NCBI GenBank assembly: GCA_965249065.1
Contig: CBDFLG010000001.1
Location: 1,094,646 to 1,158,645 of the forward strand
Source of the DNA: Dehalococcoidia bacterium
GTDB taxonomy: Bacteria > Chloroflexota > Dehalococcoidia > Lucifugimonadales > UBA3495
Direction of reading: 5' to 3'
Length of the DNA stretch: 64,000 nt
The position numbers were made by a program, and so were the translations under genes. Under the pieces are notes generated by a model. That model ran no database searches. It was not told the DNA's origin and was given only the letters and a program-made list of their open reading frames with translations. Of the stretch, positions 33,874 through 40,651 are shown piece after piece (the first letter of the stretch is position 1; each line of letters opens with the position of its first letter).

Positions 33874-34980
33874 TTATGAGTCGTCCTTCTTCTCTTGACC
33901 GCGGAAGGGAGCGCGCAGGACAACGGCCACGTCACCGACTGTGCCACCGACAGCGCCGGTGACGGCGGTGGCAGTCGCCTCGCCAAAGGACCCGGCGGCG
34001 CTGACCGCGCCGTTGGCCGCAGCCGAGGCCGCGTCTTCGGCCTTCAGGCCAATGCTCTTGGCCGACTCGATGGACTGCTCCACCGCGTTCCGGGCTACGC
34101 TGCCCACGTCTCCGCCCACTTCCGCCGTGCCTTTGATCAGGCCGCGCGCGCTGTCTTCGATGGCCTGCAATACGTTGCCTCCAATCTGGTTCGCGCCGGT
34201 GACCGTGCCGTCAATGGTGTCGCGGGCCGCGGCTCCCAAGTCGCCGCCCACCTCCCGGGTGCCATGAATCGCGCCCCGGGCCGCGCTGAAGACCGCATCC
34301 TGAAGCCGGACGGTAACGCCGCCGGTGGCTTCAATCGCGCCCTCCACAGCGTTGCGGGTAACGGAAGCGACGTCGCCTCCAACCTCGGAAGCTCCTCGAA
34401 TCAGGCCGCGCGTGCTGTCTTCAACGGCTTGCAGCACGTTGCCGCCCACTTCGGCGGTCCCGGTAACTGCGCCTTTGGCTGCGTCGCGCGCCGTTGCGCC
34501 CAGGTCGCCGCCCACGTCCCTCGTGCCTTGAATCGCGCCGCGGGTAACGCTGAATACCGCGTCTTCGGCCCGTAGGCCAACGCTCTTGGTGGTTTCCAGC
34601 GTGCCTTCCACCGCGCTGCGGGCCACGGTAGCCACGTCGCCGCCCACCTCGCTGGTGCCTTGAATTGCGGCCCGCACGGTGTCGCTGCATACTCCGACAG
34701 TCACCGTTGCGACCTCCCCAACGCCGCGAATGATGCCGATGACCGCGCCCTTGGCGGTGGAGCCCAGCTCCGCGCCGACGCCGCCTGTTGCCTGTATGGT
34801 GCCTTTCATTACGTCAACGACCAGTTCCTGGACCCCGCTAACCACTTCACGGGACCCTGACAATGTGCCAACGGTTATATTCCGCGCCGTTAATACGGTG
34901 GTCTCCAAGACATTCCCTGCCCCGTTGATAGTTCCAGTTATTGAGTCTCTTATAGTTCGGCCAATGTTGCTCAAAACCAT
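33874..34980 (-). CDS. repeat protein: nested 22-aa / 88-aa Gly-punctuated helical repeats, unknown family
   Basis: 368 aa, no signal peptide. 22-aa units such as RGLIRGASEVGGDVASVTRNAVEG. Two full 88-aa super-units (res 147-234 and 235-322) plus a half unit. The DNA repeats with a 264-bp period (e.g. 34136 vs 34400). Confidence 0.7.
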   Translation of the reverse strand: MVLSNIGRTIRDSITGTINGAGNVLETTVLTARNITVGTLSGSREVVSGVQELVVDVMKGTIQATGGVGAELGSTAKGAVIGIIRGVGEVATVTVGVCSDTVRAAIQGTSEVGGDVATVARSAVEGTLETTKSVGLRAEDAVFSVTRGAIQGTRDVGGDLGATARDAAKGAVTGTAEVGGNVLQAVEDSTRGLIRGASEVGGDVASVTRNAVEGAIEATGGVTVRLQDAVFSAARGAIHGTREVGGDLGAAARDTIDGTVTGANQIGGNVLQAIEDSARGLIKGTAEVGGDVGSVARNAVEQSIESAKSIGLKAEDAASAAANGAVSAAGSFGEATATAVTGAVGGTVGDVAVVLRAPFRGQEKKDDS

Positions 34981-35363: not shown

Positions 35364-35440
35364 GGGCCGCCGCCTTGAGCGGCCTACAGCTTGCGGTTAC
35401 ACTTGGATTTGCGGTTATAGTCCGGGCGGCGGCCCGTGGC
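35359..35440. promoter_or_regulatory. 16-bp perfect inverted repeat enclosing a duplicated TTGCGGTTA motif, upstream of mcm
   Basis: gccacgggccgccgcc (35359-35374) is the reverse complement of ggcggcggcccgtggc (35425-35440). Inside, ttgcggtta occurs at 35391-35399 and 35409-35417. It ends 37 nt before the mcm start. Confidence 0.5.
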
Positions 35441-35476
35441 TCCGCGGGCAAGCACGCACAGGCAAAGGAGGGCGGT

Positions 35477-37138
35477 ATGTCCAGCAAGGACAAGCAACAG
35501 TGGCATGAGGAAACGCTCAAACCGGCAGTGGGGCGGTTCCCGGAACGGCGCGAGTCTTTTGAGACCGACAGCGGCCTCGCCATAGATTCGCTGTACGCCC
35601 CTGAAGACCTGGCGGCCCGAGGCCACGACTACGGCGAGGACGTCGGTTTTCCCGGCGAGTTCCCCTACACTCGCGGCGTGCAGCCCAGCGTCTACCGCGG
35701 GCGCGTCTGGACCATGCGCCAGTATTCGGGATACGCCACCGCCGCCGACACCAACCGCCGCTACCGCTACCTGCTGGAGCAGGGCCAGACCGGGCTGTCG
35801 GTGGCCTTCGACCTGCCGACGCAAATCGGCTACGACTCCGACCACCCGCTGGCCAAGGGCGAGGTGGGCAAGGTGGGCGTGCCAATTTGCAGCCTAGAAG
35901 ACATGGAAACGCTGTTCGACGGCATCCCGCTGGGGCGGGTCAGCACCTCCATGACCATCAACGCCACCGCCTCGCTGCTGCTCTGTTTCTACATCGCCGC
36001 CGCCGCCCGGCAGGGCGTGTCCCCGGAGCAGATAAGCGGCACGTTGCAGAACGACATCCTCAAGGAGTACATCGCCCGCGGCACCTACGCCTACCCGCCG
36101 CGTCCTTCGATGCGGCTGGTGGTGGACGTGTTCAAGTATTGCGCCGAGAACGTGCCGCGCTGGAACACCATCAGCATCTCCGGCTACCACATGAGGGAGG
36201 CCGGGGCGACGGCGGTGCAAGAACTGGCCTTCACCTTCGCCAATGCCATCGCCTACGTGCAGGTGGCATTGGACGCCGGGCTGAAAATCGACGAATTCGC
36301 GCCGCGCCTTTCCTTCTTCTTCGTGGCCCAGAACAACCTGTTCGAGGAAGTAGCCAAGTTTCGCGCCGCCCGCCGCATCTGGGCCCGCATAATGCGCGAC
36401 CGCTTCGGGGCCAAGGATTCGCGCTCGATGATGCTGCGGTTCCACACCCAGACCGCCGGCGTCTCGCTGACCGCCCAGCAGCCCGACAACAACGTCATCC
36501 GCTGCACGGTGCAGGCCCTCGCCGCCATCCTGGGCGGCTCCCAATCGCTTCACGTCAACTCCCGCGACGAGGCCCTGGCCTTGCCCACCGAGGAGTCGGC
36601 CCAGCTTTCCCTTCGCACCCAGCAAATCTTGGCCTACGAAAGCGGCACGGCGGACGTGGTGGACCCATTGGGCGGTTCCTGGTACGTCGAGAGCCTGACC
36701 AACGACCTGGAAGAGCAGGCGCTGGATTACATCCGGCGCATAGACGACATGGGCGGCGCGGTGGCAGCCATCGAGGACGGTTTCCAGATGCGCGAGATTG
36801 GCGACGCCGCCTACCGCCACCGTCAGGAAGTGGAGTCGGGCGACCGCATAATCGTCGGCGTGAACCGCTACGCCACCGAGGAGCCGCCGGTGGAGGGCCT
36901 GATGCGCGTGGACGAGGAAGCCGCCCGCCAGCAGATAGCCCGCCTGGAGCGCCTGCGCCGGGAGCGCGACGGCAGCGCAGCACAGGCAGCCCTCAGCCGA
37001 CTGGCAGACGCCGCCCGCAGCGACGATAATACAGTGCCGGCCATACTGGAGTGCGTAGAAGCCTACTGCACCCTGGGCGAGATGTCCGGCGTCCTGCGTG
37101 AAGCCTTCGGCGAGCAGGAGGAAATGGCGGCGTTTTAG
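35477..37138 (+). CDS. methylmalonyl-CoA mutase, large (catalytic) subunit
   Basis: ATG after [66 protein letters not shown] is near-canonical MCM sequence. No B12 domain in this ORF. Confidence 0.9.
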
Positions 37139-37177: not shown

Positions 37178-37489
37178 ATGCCGTTGCACAAACTCAACAA
37201 CCCTAGCCTAGTGTACTACAAAGCACTGAACAAGTACTTGGAGCTGGTGCAGGAAATCCCGGAGGTGGTGGAGGTGCGGCTGTCGGAGGACGACGAACTA
37301 TACGCCATACTCTTGGCAACCCCCCACGAAGACGCCCCTTGCTACCGGGTGTATCAGGCAGAGGGAGAGGTTATGGATTCGGTGAAGCACCAACCCTATC
37401 GGTTTCGGCTAGTGAATGCCCAAGAATTGCCGGAAGAGGGCCGTGAAGAACATATTTGCAGTTTCGGCGATTTGGTGTGGCTGAGATAA
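37178..37489 (+). CDS. small protein, unknown family (paralog 1 of a tandem pair)
   Basis: 103 aa. 64/103 positions are identical to the next gene in a gapless manual alignment (KLNNP.L.YY.AL.KYLELV..IPEVVEVRL.EDD...ATPH.D.PCYRV...LVN.QELPE...GDLVW.R). Confidence 0.6.
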   Translation: MPLHKLNNPSLVYYKALNKYLELVQEIPEVVEVRLSEDDELYAILLATPHEDAPCYRVYQAEGEVMDSVKHQPYRFRLVNAQELPEEGREEHICSFGDLVWLR

Positions 37490-37521
37490 CCGATGCTAAC
37501 CGCGCAAGACAAGGGGGAACA

Positions 37522-37833
37522 GTGAAAGAAGACAAGCTAAACAACCCCGGCCTGCTGTACTATCAGGCCCTGACCAAGTACCTAGAGCTGGTGAAAGACA
37601 TCCCGGAGGTGGTGGAGGTGCGGCTGGCCGAGGATGACTCGCTATGCACGATTATCTCAGCAACGCCGCATGACGATGAGCCTTGCTATCGAGTATTCGA
37701 GGCTCAAGGGGCCATTATACGAGGCGTGAAGCAGCAACCGTTCGTTTTCGATTTGGTGAACTGCCAAGAACTGCCGGAAAACCAGAGGCCGGAACGCATA
37801 GCTAATCTGGGAGATCTGGTATGGAAGCGATAA
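37522..37833 (+). CDS. small protein, unknown family (paralog 2)
   Basis: GTG at 37522 after AAGGGGGA. 103 aa. See the previous feature. Confidence 0.6.
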   Translation: MKEDKLNNPGLLYYQALTKYLELVKDIPEVVEVRLAEDDSLCTIISATPHDDEPCYRVFEAQGAIIRGVKQQPFVFDLVNCQELPENQRPERIANLGDLVWKR

Positions 37834-37836
37834 CCA

Positions 37837-38202
37837 ATGTTAACCGTACAAGAACATTTGGCCTTGGCTGAAAGGAACGAACGATTTGTAGCAGCAATTG
37901 TATCTCTACCGCAAAGGTTCCCGGAGTGGGAGATTACGGCAATGTTCTATTCCGCTCTCCATTACGCCAGCGCGTTTCTGACAACGCAGGGCCATAGCCC
38001 TCAAAACCATTATCAAAGAAATAATATGGTCTGGAATCTGACTAACGCTGGCACAGATTATCAAAATTTGTATCGTCTGAGCCTGAATGCTCGCTACCAA
38101 AGGTCAACGTACACCCCAACGCAAGCGGACGCAATCAAAGGTGGCCCAATCAGCCGCGTCAAAGAGGAAATGCTGGCCCTGCTAGAGCGTGTGGACAAAT
38201 GA
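37837..38202 (+). CDS. HEPN-like all-alpha protein (tentative)
   Basis: Starts 3 nt after the paralog-2 stop. WEITAMFYSALHYASAFLTTQG...NHYQRNNMV...LYRLSLNARYQ parallels the helix pattern of 16642-17127. Confidence 0.5.
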   Translation: MLTVQEHLALAERNERFVAAIVSLPQRFPEWEITAMFYSALHYASAFLTTQGHSPQNHYQRNNMVWNLTNAGTDYQNLYRLSLNARYQRSTYTPTQADAIKGGPISRVKEEMLALLERVDK

Positions 38203-38244
38203 GGGCCGCTAATCCGCAGCTTGGTTGCTACAAAAGGGAATCCT

Positions 38245-38538
38245 ATGACCCGTCTACTCGTTCTTCTCTTCACCATTCTTCTGCTTGTCGGCACGGCCTG
38301 TGGCGGTCCACCTAAAGGGGTGGTGCTGAACGAACGCATGGAAGAGTTCTGTTTGGCTCTCCTCGTATACGATGGGCCAAACTTTGATAGGCTAAATCTC
38401 AACTTCGTAGAATCGGGCGTAGTCATATCGGAGCTATATGAGACGTATTCCCTGTTGGAGCTGGCTATGGAAGCCTGTGACGCGTGGGCGGATTGGTCTG
38501 AGGATAGATACCCAGGAGGTTCAGGCGACCAGTATTAG
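38245..38538 (+). CDS. small lipoprotein
   Basis: MTRLLVLLFTILLLVGTACGG signal plus lipobox. Confidence 0.6.
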   Translation: MTRLLVLLFTILLLVGTACGGPPKGVVLNERMEEFCLALLVYDGPNFDRLNLNFVESGVVISELYETYSLLELAMEACDAWADWSEDRYPGGSGDQY

Positions 38539-38670
38539 TAGAGCGAGGAGACTTGTTAAATATCCACACACCCTGGTCAACCGCCCTTGAAGGCTACCAT
38601 GCCCCTCCTGATCCAATCATCTCTGGAATTCGTGACTCAGGGGCAGAGACCACTAGAAGGAGAAACCACC

Positions 38671-39828
38671 ATGCCCGACCTGATACTCAACGAAGAGGAG
38701 CTGATGCTCCAGACTACCCTGCGCGAGTTTGTTGACCGCGAGATTGCGCCCAAGGCCCGCGAGTCCGACGAGCGTGGCGAGTTCCAATGGGACGCTTGGC
38801 GCAGACTCTCCGAGCTGGGGCTGACCGGCCTGGGCGTCGACGTCAAGCACGGCGGCAGCGGCCCGGCCGGCTACCGTCAGGTCTCCATCGCCGCTGAGGA
38901 AGTGGCGCGGGGCGACGCCTCGGCCTCTGTCAGTTGGCTGGCCCACCTGGCCTTGGGCGTGGCCTCTATTGACCGCTTCGGCAGCGACGAGCAAAAGGAG
39001 CGCATCCTGCCGCCGTTGACCGGTGGGCAGGGCGTGGCCGCCTTCGGCCTCACCGAGCCGGGGGGCGGCTCCGACGCCGCCGCGCTCCAGACCACCGCCG
39101 TCGAGCGTGATGGCACGTACTTTCTCAACGGCAGCAAAATGTTCATCACCAACGCATCGGTGGCCCAGAGCATCGTCGTCTTCGCCACGCAGGACCGCAG
39201 CATGGGCTACAAGGGCGTCAGCGCCTTCATCGTAGAGAGGGGCTCGCCGGGGCTGACCATTAACCCGATGCACGGCAAGCTGGGGATGCGCTCCTCCACC
39301 ACCGACGAACTGGTCTTCCAGGATATGCCGGTGCCCCAAGAAAACCTGCTGGGCGAGGAAGGACGCGGCTTCAACCAGGCTATGGAAATCCTGACCTCCA
39401 GCCGCATCATCATCGCCGCCCAGAGCGTCGGCATCGGCCAGTCGGCGCTGGAGGCCGCTTTGCGCTACGCCCAACAGCGTCACTCCTTCGGCCAGCCCAT
39501 CGCCCAGCACCAGGCCGTTCAGTTCATGCTGGCCGACATGGCCGCCGAGATCCACGCAGCCCGTGTGACCACCATGAACGCCGCCACCCTGAAGGACGCT
39601 GGGCTGCCCTTCATGCAGGAAGCCTCCATCGCCAAGCTGATGGCCTCGGAGATGTGCATCCGGGCTGCCGACAAGGCGTTGCAGATTCATGGCGGTTCCG
39701 GCTACTTCCAGGAGGCCGGCGTGGAGCGCATCCTGCGGGACGCCCGCGTGACCACCATCTACGAAGGCACCTCCGAAGTCCAGCGCCTGCTCATTGCGCG
39801 ACAGCTTCTGAAGGATTACGCTATCTAG
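38671..39828 (+). CDS. acyl-CoA dehydrogenase
   Basis: ATG after GAAGGAG. GLTEPGGGSDAAAL...KMFITNA...IYEGTSEVQRLLIAR. Confidence 0.9.
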   Translation: MPDLILNEEELMLQTTLREFVDREIAPKARESDERGEFQWDAWRRLSELGLTGLGVDVKHGGSGPAGYRQVSIAAEEVARGDASASVSWLAHLALGVASIDRFGSDEQKERILPPLTGGQGVAAFGLTEPGGGSDAAALQTTAVERDGTYFLNGSKMFITNASVAQSIVVFATQDRSMGYKGVSAFIVERGSPGLTINPMHGKLGMRSSTTDELVFQDMPVPQENLLGEEGRGFNQAMEILTSSRIIIAAQSVGIGQSALEAALRYAQQRHSFGQPIAQHQAVQFMLADMAAEIHAARVTTMNAATLKDAGLPFMQEASIAKLMASEMCIRAADKALQIHGGSGYFQEAGVERILRDARVTTIYEGTSEVQRLLIARQLLKDYAI

Positions 39829-39935: not shown

Positions 39936-40184
39936 ATGGCCTCCAATCCTGCCCCTGAACCGTCGCCGGAATCCAACGCCGCCCTGTGGCTGGCCATGGG
40001 CCGCCTCCAGTCGGACACCGCCCGGGTGCTAGAGGGTCAAACCGAATTTCGTACCGGCCTAGCCGAGATGAACCGCAGGATCGACGAAACGAACCGCAGG
40101 ATGGACCGGCTGTTTTACGCCATCATCGGTGTCGGTGCTGGCGTTATAGGCACCCTGGTCGCTGTCCTGTTGCGCAGTGGATAG
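39936..40184 (+). CDS. small coiled-coil protein with C-terminal TM anchor
   Basis: 82 aa. LAEMNRRIDETNRRMDRLFYAIIGVGAGVIGTLVAVLL. GGAG upstream. Confidence 0.45.
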   Translation: MASNPAPEPSPESNAALWLAMGRLQSDTARVLEGQTEFRTGLAEMNRRIDETNRRMDRLFYAIIGVGAGVIGTLVAVLLRSG

Positions 40185-40240: not shown

Positions 40241-40651
40241 ATGCAAAATAACGAACGCCCCATCCGGATTCTGGTGGCCAAGCCCGGACTCGACGGCCAC
40301 GACCGCGGCGCGAAGGTCATCGCCCGCGCTCTCCGCGACGCTGGTATGGAGGTCATCTATACCGGCATCCGGCAAAGCCCCCGGATGATTGTCCAGGCCG
40401 CCGCCCAGGAGGATGTGGACGTTCTTGGCCTGAGCATCCTCTCCGGCGCCCACCTGGAAATCCTGCCAGAGGTGATGACACTGCTCCGGGGTGAAGGGAT
40501 GGACGACGTGCTGGTGGTGGTGGGGGGCATCATACCCTCCGTCGACCGCCAACCCCTCAAAGATCTGGGCATCACCGAGGTCTTTGGCCCCGGCACTTCC
40601 ACGGGGGAGATAGTGGAGTTCATCCGCGAAACCATGTCCGGGAGGGTTTAG
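40241..40651 (+). CDS. methylmalonyl-CoA mutase, small B12-binding subunit
   Basis: [35 protein letters not shown] (DxHxxG cobalamin-binding motif). Confidence 0.9.

Follow-up and report, generated by a model that had tools for sequence, protein, structure and literature searches.

The question raised by this locus is what kind of system is formed by three small, tightly packed genes that lie between two genes of a metabolic operon, one for the large subunit of methylmalonyl-CoA mutase (mcm; product MCM) and one for an acyl-CoA dehydrogenase (acd; product ACAD). The genes are found in a 64,000-nucleotide (nt) stretch of the forward strand of Dehalococcoidia bacterium (assembly GCA_965249065.1, contig CBDFLG010000001.1, positions 1,094,646–1,158,645), the whole of which is referred to as the window hereafter. 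An earlier examination confined to the letters of this DNA (the sequence-only reading) had described them as tandemly duplicated genes for 103-residue proteins (genes 1 and 2) followed by a gene for a HEPN-like protein (gene 3), and had considered a HEPN-like gene with a duplicated partner of this kind to be an undescribed architecture. The open reading frames (ORFs) were confirmed where that reading had placed them, with gaps of 32 nt between genes 1 and 2 and 3 nt between genes 2 and 3 (Table 1), and so was their AT-richness: the GC content is 0.46–0.55 in the islet and 0.63–0.71 in the mcm and ACAD flanks. Taking the whole chain of the argument together, we give slightly better than even weight to the following answer: genes 2 and 3 are a diverged, two-gene, toxin–antitoxin-like module of the HEPN–MNT type (MNT, minimal nucleotidyltransferase), and gene 1 is an orphan partner gene left beside it.

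The predicted structure of the gene 3 product identifies it as a HEPN domain, of PF05168 / AF0298 type. The AlphaFold2 model, based on a 24-sequence family alignment, is an all-alpha bundle of five helices with a mean confidence (pLDDT) of 96. When this model was compared with the PDB by Foldseek, the best match was AF0298 (2hsb; template-modelling (TM) scores 0.82/0.79, probability 1.00), followed by ST0689 (1wol), a Legionella HEPN toxin (8xeh_B), and the HEPN domain of sacsin (3o10_C). The four best matches are thus all HEPN proteins, and the Shewanella HepT (5yep_C) also appears in the list. At the sequence level, the Pfam HEPN family PF05168 was matched by 11 of 28 diverse relatives of gene 3 (best E 1.1e-4), and one homologue carries the JGI name 'UPF0332 family'. 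In addition, a tblastn search found the annotated HEPN protein of the Thermus phage Tsatsa, which scores 22.5 bits on PF05168 (cut-off 22) and was aligned with the family by hhalign with a probability of 98.2% (E 4e-14). The all-alpha, HEPN-like character that the sequence-only reading had seen in gene 3 is therefore borne out.

That reading had also pointed out that gene 3 lacks the canonical Rx4-6H motif, and this is correct: R86 is followed by YQRSTY, the residues at +5 to +7 are T/Y/T, and no conserved histidine stands there anywhere in the family. The motif RX4HXY with its acceptor tyrosine is likewise absent, the family having R86–Y87 and neither the histidine nor a tyrosine at +7. The missing histidine is no anomaly, because its loss has been described for the AF0298-like HEPN-T clade: the arginine of the motif is kept there, helix 2 has an acidic residue, and a second conserved histidine, supplied by an insert between helices 2 and 3, possibly forms an alternative active site (Anantharaman et al. 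2013, PMC3710099). Gene 3 has exactly these features: R86 is kept, H58 lies in the corresponding insert, and the acidic E32 is in helix 2. The residues invariant in the family are N14, E15, R27, W31, E32, H42, H58, R61, S82, R86, Y87 and K109, and R86–Y87, H58 and E32 remain so even among members that are only 34–45% identical. In the model, R86 ends the helix of residues 72–87, H58 opens the inserted helix of residues 58–68, and E32 opens the helix of residues 29–50. The likely active site, as judged from the model, is thus the alternative one of the AF0298 type, consisting of H58 and R86–Y87 with E32 nearby, and the gene 3 product would be a toxin that cleaves RNA or, at the least, binds it.

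The proteins encoded by genes 1 and 2 are paralogs, as had been stated: a gapless alignment gives 65 identical positions among 103 (63%, E 4e-49; 64 had been counted by hand), and the shared blocks quoted at that time are present and form the conserved core of a family comprising at least 59 clusters. The AlphaFold2 model of this small family, made from the family alignment, has a pLDDT of 89 and the order α1-β1-β2-α2-β3-α3-β4. Its best Foldseek match, in both TM score and probability, is the MNT antitoxin of L. pneumophila (8xeo_A; TM 0.59/0.61, probability 1.00, root-mean-square deviation 3.6 over 98 columns), and the further matches to MntA (6m6v_A and 6m6w_A) and HI0073 (1no5_B) bring the MNT entries to four in all. 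According to the published description, the Legionella protein, MNT-Lpg, consists of a sheet of four strands and three helices, and a long, glycine-rich loop between β1 and β2 bears GSX10DXD (PMC11586414). The order of secondary-structure elements in the small model is that of this description, and hence of the minimal nucleotidyltransferase fold. What differs is the loop: the β1–β2 connection is a four-residue turn, S/A-E-D-D, and the family has no conserved G/S, no G[GS] and no DxD. The sequence-only reading was thus right that the MNT motif is absent, while its term 'non-MNT partner' went too far, since it is the catalytic G-loop that is missing and not the fold. Around the β1–β2 hairpin, where MNTs carry their catalytic residues, E29, E32, R34 and D39 are invariant in the small family; in a wide alignment of distant relatives, only V30, T43, F76 and N80 are nearly so.

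Based on the topology, the best TM score, the HEPN partner and the gene order, we consider it fairly probable that the small proteins are derived from an MNT. They are probably non-enzymatic, as far as the model tells, and because a four-residue turn has replaced the G-loop, AMPylation of gene 3 by them is most likely impossible. A partner with the MNT fold and without the G-loop was not found described in the literature searched. The Pfam searches gave no match for either window copy (E ≤ 1), none for 52 relatives (E ≤ 10), and no common family for 92 distant relatives; neither NTP_transf_2 nor Polbeta was matched in any of these three sets. Weak matches of the small family to AsnC/RAM and CCA-adding enzymes (E 0.75–1.6) were not used as evidence, a fold search of the small protein against BFVD was uninformative, and the PDB sequence and profile searches with genes 1 and 3 and with the wider alignments yielded nothing significant. 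The faint resemblance to XisI that had been suggested for the small proteins found no support in the same Pfam searches, in which neither the window copies nor the 52 relatives matched this family, and was rejected.

Whether the two families belong together can be seen from their occurrence in other genomes. A scan of species-representative genomes provided 29 loci, nearly all titled Dehalococcoidia, which together with three metagenome loci and the window gave 31 non-redundant loci (designated by L numbers where they must be told apart). An intact HEPN gene is present in 25 of the 31, each time with an intact small gene directly on its 5′ side, and in nearly all of the 25 the two are separated by a short gap or overlap by 1 nt. 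Among the six other loci, one has no HEPN gene and five have HEPN fragments only. A profile search of 1.84 billion representatives added 106 distant matches to the small family, many of them with an N-terminal extension of about 85 residues, and a HEPN gene lies directly 3′ of the small gene in 17 of the 18 distant JGI metagenome loci in which this could be tested. In L035, the small gene is followed by the HEPN gene, and in L037, the HEPN partner (hhalign probability 99.4%) follows after 3 nt. The genes surrounding the distant pairs are unrelated, and the GC content there is 0.44–0.62. Because L035, L037 and 17 of the 18 distant loci have a HEPN gene, it does not hold that homologues of the small proteins occur mostly without such a neighbour; the two families form an obligate pair. 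Both are under purifying selection (median ratio of nonsynonymous to synonymous substitution rates, dN/dS, 0.19 for the small family and 0.18 for the HEPN family, the latter comprising at least 145 clusters). An earlier metagenome scan that used another subgroup found no relatives. Since there is no Pfam, NCBIfam or PADLOC model for them, members of both families are left as 'hypothetical proteins'.

The arrangement of the pair is itself informative. In HEPN–MNT dyads, the partner gene lies 5′ and the HEPN gene 3′, a few bases apart (PMC3710099). In the islet, the MNT-like gene is 5′ and the HEPN gene 3′ with a 3-nt gap, and the same order is kept in the distant loci. The gene order is accordingly that of a known type of dyad, and the view of the architecture as undescribed is not supported.

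Two observations on relatives further afield may be added. In the Tsatsa phage locus (L039, 1242–2279), the HEPN gene adjoins an integrase gene and is preceded by small hypothetical genes for 103 and 126 residues; the gene immediately 5′ of the HEPN gene was ruled out as a member of the small family (hhalign probability 0.6%). Judged from the sequence comparisons, the phage protein is of the same HEPN subtype and has a different partner, its two 5′ small genes not being detectably related to the small family. The other is that a conserved, unannotated protein of about 208 residues is encoded 5′ of, or overlapping, the extended small gene in L040 (3394–4020), L048 (3220–3849) and L050 (634–1263), with a longer version in L037 (1–747). 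The distant relatives with this upstream gene may be three-gene systems.

The manner in which genes have been lost from the loci bears on the function of the pair. Each of the 25 intact HEPN genes has an intact partner gene 5′ of it. In the opposite direction, nine loci carry an additional intact partner, and in three the partner is intact and the HEPN gene broken or absent. The HEPN gene is missing from L030 and interrupted in L027 and L032, with the operon intact. In all, 12 intact partners lack an intact HEPN gene of their own, as against 0 cases of the converse, a contrast to be read with the caveat that several orphan copies share ancestry. Such an asymmetric loss is what one would expect of a HEPN protein that does harm when its partner is missing, and therefore fits toxin–antitoxin logic.

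The position of the islet is fixed, while what stands in it is exchanged. The order shared by about 25 species-level Dehalococcoidia genomes is the mcm large subunit gene, one or two small genes, the HEPN gene, variable DNA of 26–1660 nt, and the ACAD gene, usually followed by an ORF of 82 residues and then by the gene for the B12-binding subunit. The sequence-only reading had spoken of an islet inserted after the mcm large subunit gene; the position is as it said, and a recent, strain-specific insertion was ruled out by this shared arrangement. The mcm flank is 75–100% identical across the loci that carry the large subunit gene. The mean pairwise protein identity is 89% for MCM and 91% for ACAD, and 61% and 53% for the small and HEPN proteins. 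Within the pair, the identities of the two proteins rise and fall together (Spearman 0.53), and they hardly follow those of the flanks (0.06–0.28); alleles differ by 30–60% between genomes whose mutase and ACAD are 90–100% identical. The atypical composition is also retained, the GC content at third codon positions (GC3) being 0.64 in gene 2 and 0.51 in gene 3 as compared with 0.86 in both flanks, and about 0.6–0.67 as compared with 0.85 for both families in every genome.

The closest comparison is provided by L006, from a strain nearly identical to that of the window. Its MCM, B12-binding subunit and YceD are 100% identical to those of the window, and the flanking DNA is 98–99% identical. The L006 islet, however, has a single small gene, a HEPN protein only 70–72% identical, and a different downstream gene. 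The synonymous divergence (dS) between the two is 0.025–0.047 in the flanks and 0.77–1.19 in the islet, and a DNA identity of about 99% resumes at 38657. This gap in dS calls for allele replacement or an old, maintained polymorphism; relaxed constraint is insufficient to explain it. The reverse case is L016, in which MCM is farther from that of the window (93%) and the pair closer (92% and 86%). As for gene 2, its orthologues are 93% identical in L016 and 83% in L006. It was also found that the L006 small gene is a chimera, the first 115 nt or so being near-identical to gene 1 and the rest resembling gene 2, with the switch point in the invariant core encoding IPEVVEVRL.

What occupies the variable slot 3′ of the HEPN gene changes from genome to genome. 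In L016 (7687–8154) and L019 (7680–8168), it is a gene for a methyl-directed type II restriction enzyme (PADLOC mREase_II PDLC03212, E 1e-44 to 1e-45; Pfam DUF6998), in L029 one for a Uma2 nuclease, and in L028 one for an IS630 transposase. A repeat protein of 180–452 residues, which begins with MQENxAKTAAEWVF and is built of repeats of about 34 residues (DKALQCMxxAESxAxxxxDWxxIAxxW), occupies the slot in at least six loci, L001 (6371–7468), L006 (6372–7730), L010, L011, L012 and L018; it has a weak, sub-threshold match to Imm5 and may be a third, optional component. Neighbours of these kinds are company typical of conflict systems.

The origin of gene 1 can be read from the DNA that follows it. 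From the gene 1 stop codon onward (37487–37525), there is a mini-ORF, ATG CTA ACC GCG CAA GAC ... TGA (MLTAQDKGEQ and stop), which is a deletion scar, since its first six codons are those with which a HEPN allele begins. Over 24 nt, counted from the stop codon (37487–37510), the DNA matches the junction between the small gene and the start of the HEPN gene at 22 of 24 positions in L017 and 21 of 24 in L022, and it follows from this match that gene 1 once had a HEPN gene of its own. A longer HEPN remnant lies between the two small genes of L014, and in L017 the stacked form, small gene–HEPN–small gene–HEPN fragment, is still present. The relatives nearest to gene 1 are the HEPN-adjacent copies of L009 (88%), L008 (83%) and L010/L011 (81%). 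In terms of sequence, gene 1 thus falls into a separate allele class, with its nearest counterparts in the HEPN-adjacent copies of L008–L013, and it is an orphan left by the stacking of cassettes and the loss of the inner HEPN gene rather than a simple local duplicate of gene 2. Of the tandem duplication proposed earlier, the paralogy stands, and the duplication itself is better read as this stacking and loss. Two variants of the upstream copies were also observed: in L001 (5299–5997), the two small genes are fused into one ORF of 232 residues with no stop codon between the copies, and the upstream copies of L001, L009, L010, L011, L015 and L016 share a distinct C-terminus, DQAPGIENRxAHNRxxGxxVWAR, which represents a third conserved class.

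Put together, these findings suggest the following mechanism. Gene 3 would act as a HEPN RNase or RNA-binding toxin through the H58/R86 site, and gene 2 would neutralise it by stoichiometric binding, in the manner of type II rather than type VII systems. The pair would be translationally coupled, with the partner first, and is probably transcribed with the mcm–acd operon, since neither a terminator on the + strand nor a convincing promoter between mcm and gene 1 was found in the scan of the locus. The mcm–ACAD site is a recombination hot spot in a clade of Dehalococcoidia, at which whole cassettes and half-genes are swapped between lineages through the flanks and through the IPEVVEVRL-coding core of the small gene. 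Stacked cassettes drop the inner HEPN gene and keep its partner, and gene 1 came about in this way; this gene may confer cross-protection, or it may merely persist. The module as a whole may have a physiological role, for instance in addiction or in abortive-infection defence. Of this picture, the analysis demonstrates the predicted folds, the family links, the co-occurrence, the purifying selection, the exchange of alleles and the asymmetric loss, and the toxicity, the RNase activity, the neutralisation by binding and the physiological role are inferred. A broader formulation is put forward only tentatively, as something we would sooner doubt than assume: there may be a widespread, unannotated HEPN–MNT lineage whose MNT, having lost its catalytic G-loop, has gone back from enzymatic (type VII) to allele-specific, stoichiometric neutralisation, with the alleles as an old polymorphism shuffled within a core metabolic operon and the orphans, such as gene 1, as anti-addiction or cross-protection genes against incoming alleles.

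Several points weigh against the interpretation as a HEPN–MNT-type toxin–antitoxin module. Gene 3 of the window itself has no Pfam match at E ≤ 1 and stays below the thresholds of the PDB-sequence and PADLOC searches, and PADLOC likewise matched none of the window proteins, the 28 HEPN relatives or the 52 small relatives. The Pfam and PDB sequence and profile searches revealed no sequence link between the small family and the MNTs. The Foldseek E-values of the small protein are marginal (about 5e-3 to 3e-2), and generic α/β sandwiches, among them the MamM C-terminal domain, RbfA, DUF59 and EscJ, have similar E-values with lower TM scores (0.36–0.43 for the MamM domain as against 0.59/0.61 for 8xeo_A). 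No helix-turn-helix or ribbon-helix-helix family was matched in the small family, so that it is unlike a typical, autoregulated type II antitoxin in that a DNA-binding domain was not found, and the binding by which gene 2 would neutralise gene 3 is something we infer. Some of the 'broken' genes behind the loss asymmetry are possibly long-read assembly errors. The scan found no convincing promoter that would belong to the islet, and a tblastn search against plasmids found no member of the families. Lastly, a selfish module would not usually stay so long and so strictly inside one metabolic operon, which makes a domesticated role conceivable.

This last point is the core of one rival explanation, according to which the pair has been domesticated as a non-toxic accessory or regulator of the mutase/ACAD operon; for instance, the HEPN protein might bind RNA and act on the mRNA of the operon, in the way that has been put forward for MtlR, and be modulated by the small protein. 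Such a role would agree with the same place, strand and short gaps between mcm and ACAD, with no terminator, in about 25 species, with the purifying selection on both genes, and with the fact that HEPN domains have non-catalytic regulatory uses (PMC3710099). However, the alleles differ by 30–60% between genomes whose mutase and ACAD are 90–100% identical, they are swapped between lineages, and their composition stays atypical; the pair is also found in unrelated surroundings where there is no mcm; L030, L027 and L032 lack an intact HEPN gene with the operon remaining intact; and the neighbouring slot collects restriction enzymes and an insertion sequence. We therefore regard domestication as rather improbable. 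Unlikely, though less so, is the explanation nearest to the sequence-only reading, in which a HEPN toxin is paired with a new and unrelated α/β antitoxin whose likeness to MNTs is convergent; the pair would still be a toxin–antitoxin system acting by binding. It is favoured by the profiles of 44 or 52 members, which show no significant link to nucleotidyltransferases (the best being a CCA-adding enzyme at E 1.5), and by the marginal Foldseek E-values, which are common to the MamM C-terminal domain, RbfA, EscJ and DUF59 folds. What tells against it is that the best TM score and probability are those of the MNT antitoxin 8xeo_A, that four MNT entries were matched, that the order of secondary-structure elements is identical to that of MNTs, and that the partner is a PF05168 HEPN protein in the order and spacing of the dyads (PMC3710099).

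The remaining two explanations carry much less weight. It is very improbable that the small protein is still an enzyme that works through unconventional acidic residues (the invariant E29, E32 and D39) and modifies the HEPN protein or another target in a type VII-like manner. The invariance of E29, E32, R34 and D39 where MNTs carry catalytic residues would suit such an enzyme, as would the invariant Y87 next to R86, given that MNTs AMPylate a tyrosine near the motif (PMC11586414), but G[GS] is absent, the β1–β2 connection has just four residues, and the acidic positions are not kept in the distant relatives. That the genes are decaying remnants or mis-called ORFs without function is scarcely credible. 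The lack of a family annotation, the atypical composition and the fragments in several loci could be taken in this sense; dN/dS values of about 0.1–0.2 over dozens of pairs, the at least 59 and 145 clusters, 18–19 invariant residues, the confident AlphaFold2 folds and the conserved coupling speak otherwise, and the status of a pseudogene or remnant is refuted by the selection and conservation data.

The features of the locus are collected in Table 1.

Table 1. Genes and other features of the islet and its surroundings (window coordinates)
Feature	Position	Strand	Remarks
Left flank, methylmalonyl-CoA mutase large subunit	35375..37138	+	Pfam MM_CoA_mutase E 1e-225
Gene 1	37178..37489	+	Orphan small partner of predicted MNT fold, 103 aa; GGAGAG Shine-Dalgarno
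HEPN remnant MLTAQD, six codons	37493..37510	+	From a deleted HEPN gene once 3′ of gene 1
Gene 2	37522..37833	+	Cognate small partner of predicted MNT fold, putative antitoxin; 103 aa, GTG start
Gene 3	37837..38202	+	HEPN-domain protein (PF05168 / AF0298-like), putative RNase toxin, 121 aa
Variable cargo slot ORF	38221..38538	+	Signal-peptide/lipoprotein-like; 105 aa from TTG; ATG 38245 likelier start
Right recombination boundary	38596..38657	+	17-nt imperfect copy of ACAD start
Right flank, acyl-CoA dehydrogenase (ACAD)	38668..39828	+	Pfam Acyl-CoA_dh domains
B12-binding subunit	40241-40651		3′ of ACAD and the 82-aa ORF

The start of gene 2 was set at the GTG codon, which has the Shine-Dalgarno sequence AAGGGGGA just 5′ of it, because the orthologues open with M/VK..KLNNPG; the mechanical ORF call opens earlier, at TTG 37456. 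The mechanical ACAD ORF also opens early, by 81 nt, at TTG 38587. An imperfect direct repeat of 17 nt (38596–38612 and 38668–38684) duplicates the ACAD start (ACCATGCCC.(C/G)(T/A)CCTGAT) and was probably left by recombination at the right boundary, the point from which the DNA is again identical or nearly so to that of L006. A repeat scan of the locus gave no att-like repeats, and no integrase or att site was seen. The slot ORF of the window encodes a signal peptide with the lipobox-like LLVGTAC and has no homologue in any related locus. Neither it nor genes 1–3 had a match in the single-sequence Pfam, NCBIfam and PADLOC scans; the exact products of gene 3 and of the slot ORF are absent from the protein collection searched, and the look-up of the exact gene 1 product gave no contig on record.

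Two further ORFs in the surroundings may be mentioned. The product of the 82-residue ORF between ACAD and the B12-binding subunit (39936–40184) carries a hydrophobic helix at its C-terminus and matched no family; the ORF, also noted in L009, L010 and L018, is conserved (67–99%) and is tandemly duplicated in some genomes. On the − strand, at 33874–34980, a Gly/Ala/Val-rich protein of 368 residues is encoded with internal repeats of about 88 residues (...GTxEVGGDVxxxARxAVEG...), and self-similar DNA in the same gene region (34029–34661) surfaced in the BLAST comparisons.

If the proposed module is real, an MNT fold without the nucleotidyltransferase loop, together with an AF0298-type HEPN protein, would mean that the same scaffold can work by simple binding. 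The module would also be a natural system for probing the alternative HEPN active site, H58/R86; we know of no test of that site, which was proposed in 2013. Furthermore, the locus offers a clean natural example, from uncultured Dehalococcoidia, of how cassettes are replaced and orphan antitoxins arise; comparison of two near-identical strains (the window and L006) narrows the ends of the exchanged segment down to a few tens of bases.

Finally, the islet can be compared with known systems. The defence or variable hot spots between core genes resemble it in the fixed site, the conserved flanks and the cargo that differs across genomes; the present site differs in its small size (0.8–2.4 kb), in its location inside an operon, and in the one two-gene module that is ever present. 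With the orphan antitoxin and immunity genes of polymorphic toxin and toxin–antitoxin loci, it shares an extra intact partner 5′ of the active pair, a remnant of the toxin gene, and alleles exchanged through the flanks. Unlike in those loci, the proteins here are cytoplasmic and have no secretion or delivery domain, and recombination takes place in core metabolic genes and in the small gene's own conserved core.

The closest relatives are the HEPN–MNT systems themselves. In the characterised examples, it is AMPylation that neutralises the toxin. A tyrosine near the HEPN motif is the residue that the MNTs AMPylate (PMC11586414). The type VII HepT/MntA systems (Shewanella SO_3166/3165, Aphanizomenon, Legionella; PDB 5yep, 6m6v, 7ae6, 8xeh) are likewise composed of two small co-directional genes, the α/β partner first and the helical HEPN second, which overlap or have only a few bases between them; Foldseek matched both predicted folds to theirs, and both systems consist of AT-rich, fast-evolving genes beside defence genes. 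In contrast, the partner in the islet has neither the GSX10DXD G-loop nor a match to a nucleotidyltransferase profile, and the HEPN protein has no RX4HXY, with no Pfam match to DUF86 or NTP_transf_2. Because GSX10DXD and RX4HXY are both missing, we do not file the module as type VII, and AMPylation by the small partner appears unlikely from the absence of the motif. The AF0298-like subgroup of HEPN-T (PF05168; 2hsb; PMC3710099) is similar in being the best structural match, in the kept arginine and lost histidine, in the second histidine of the helix 2–3 insert, and in that relatives of gene 3 reach the Pfam HEPN family; it differs in that the window protein lies below every sequence threshold and that the usual partner of the subgroup is a canonical MNT. 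Most likely, then, the module works like the HEPN–MNT systems and descends from them: its HEPN half is a described AF0298-like variant, and what appears new is the unannotated partner family without the G-loop.

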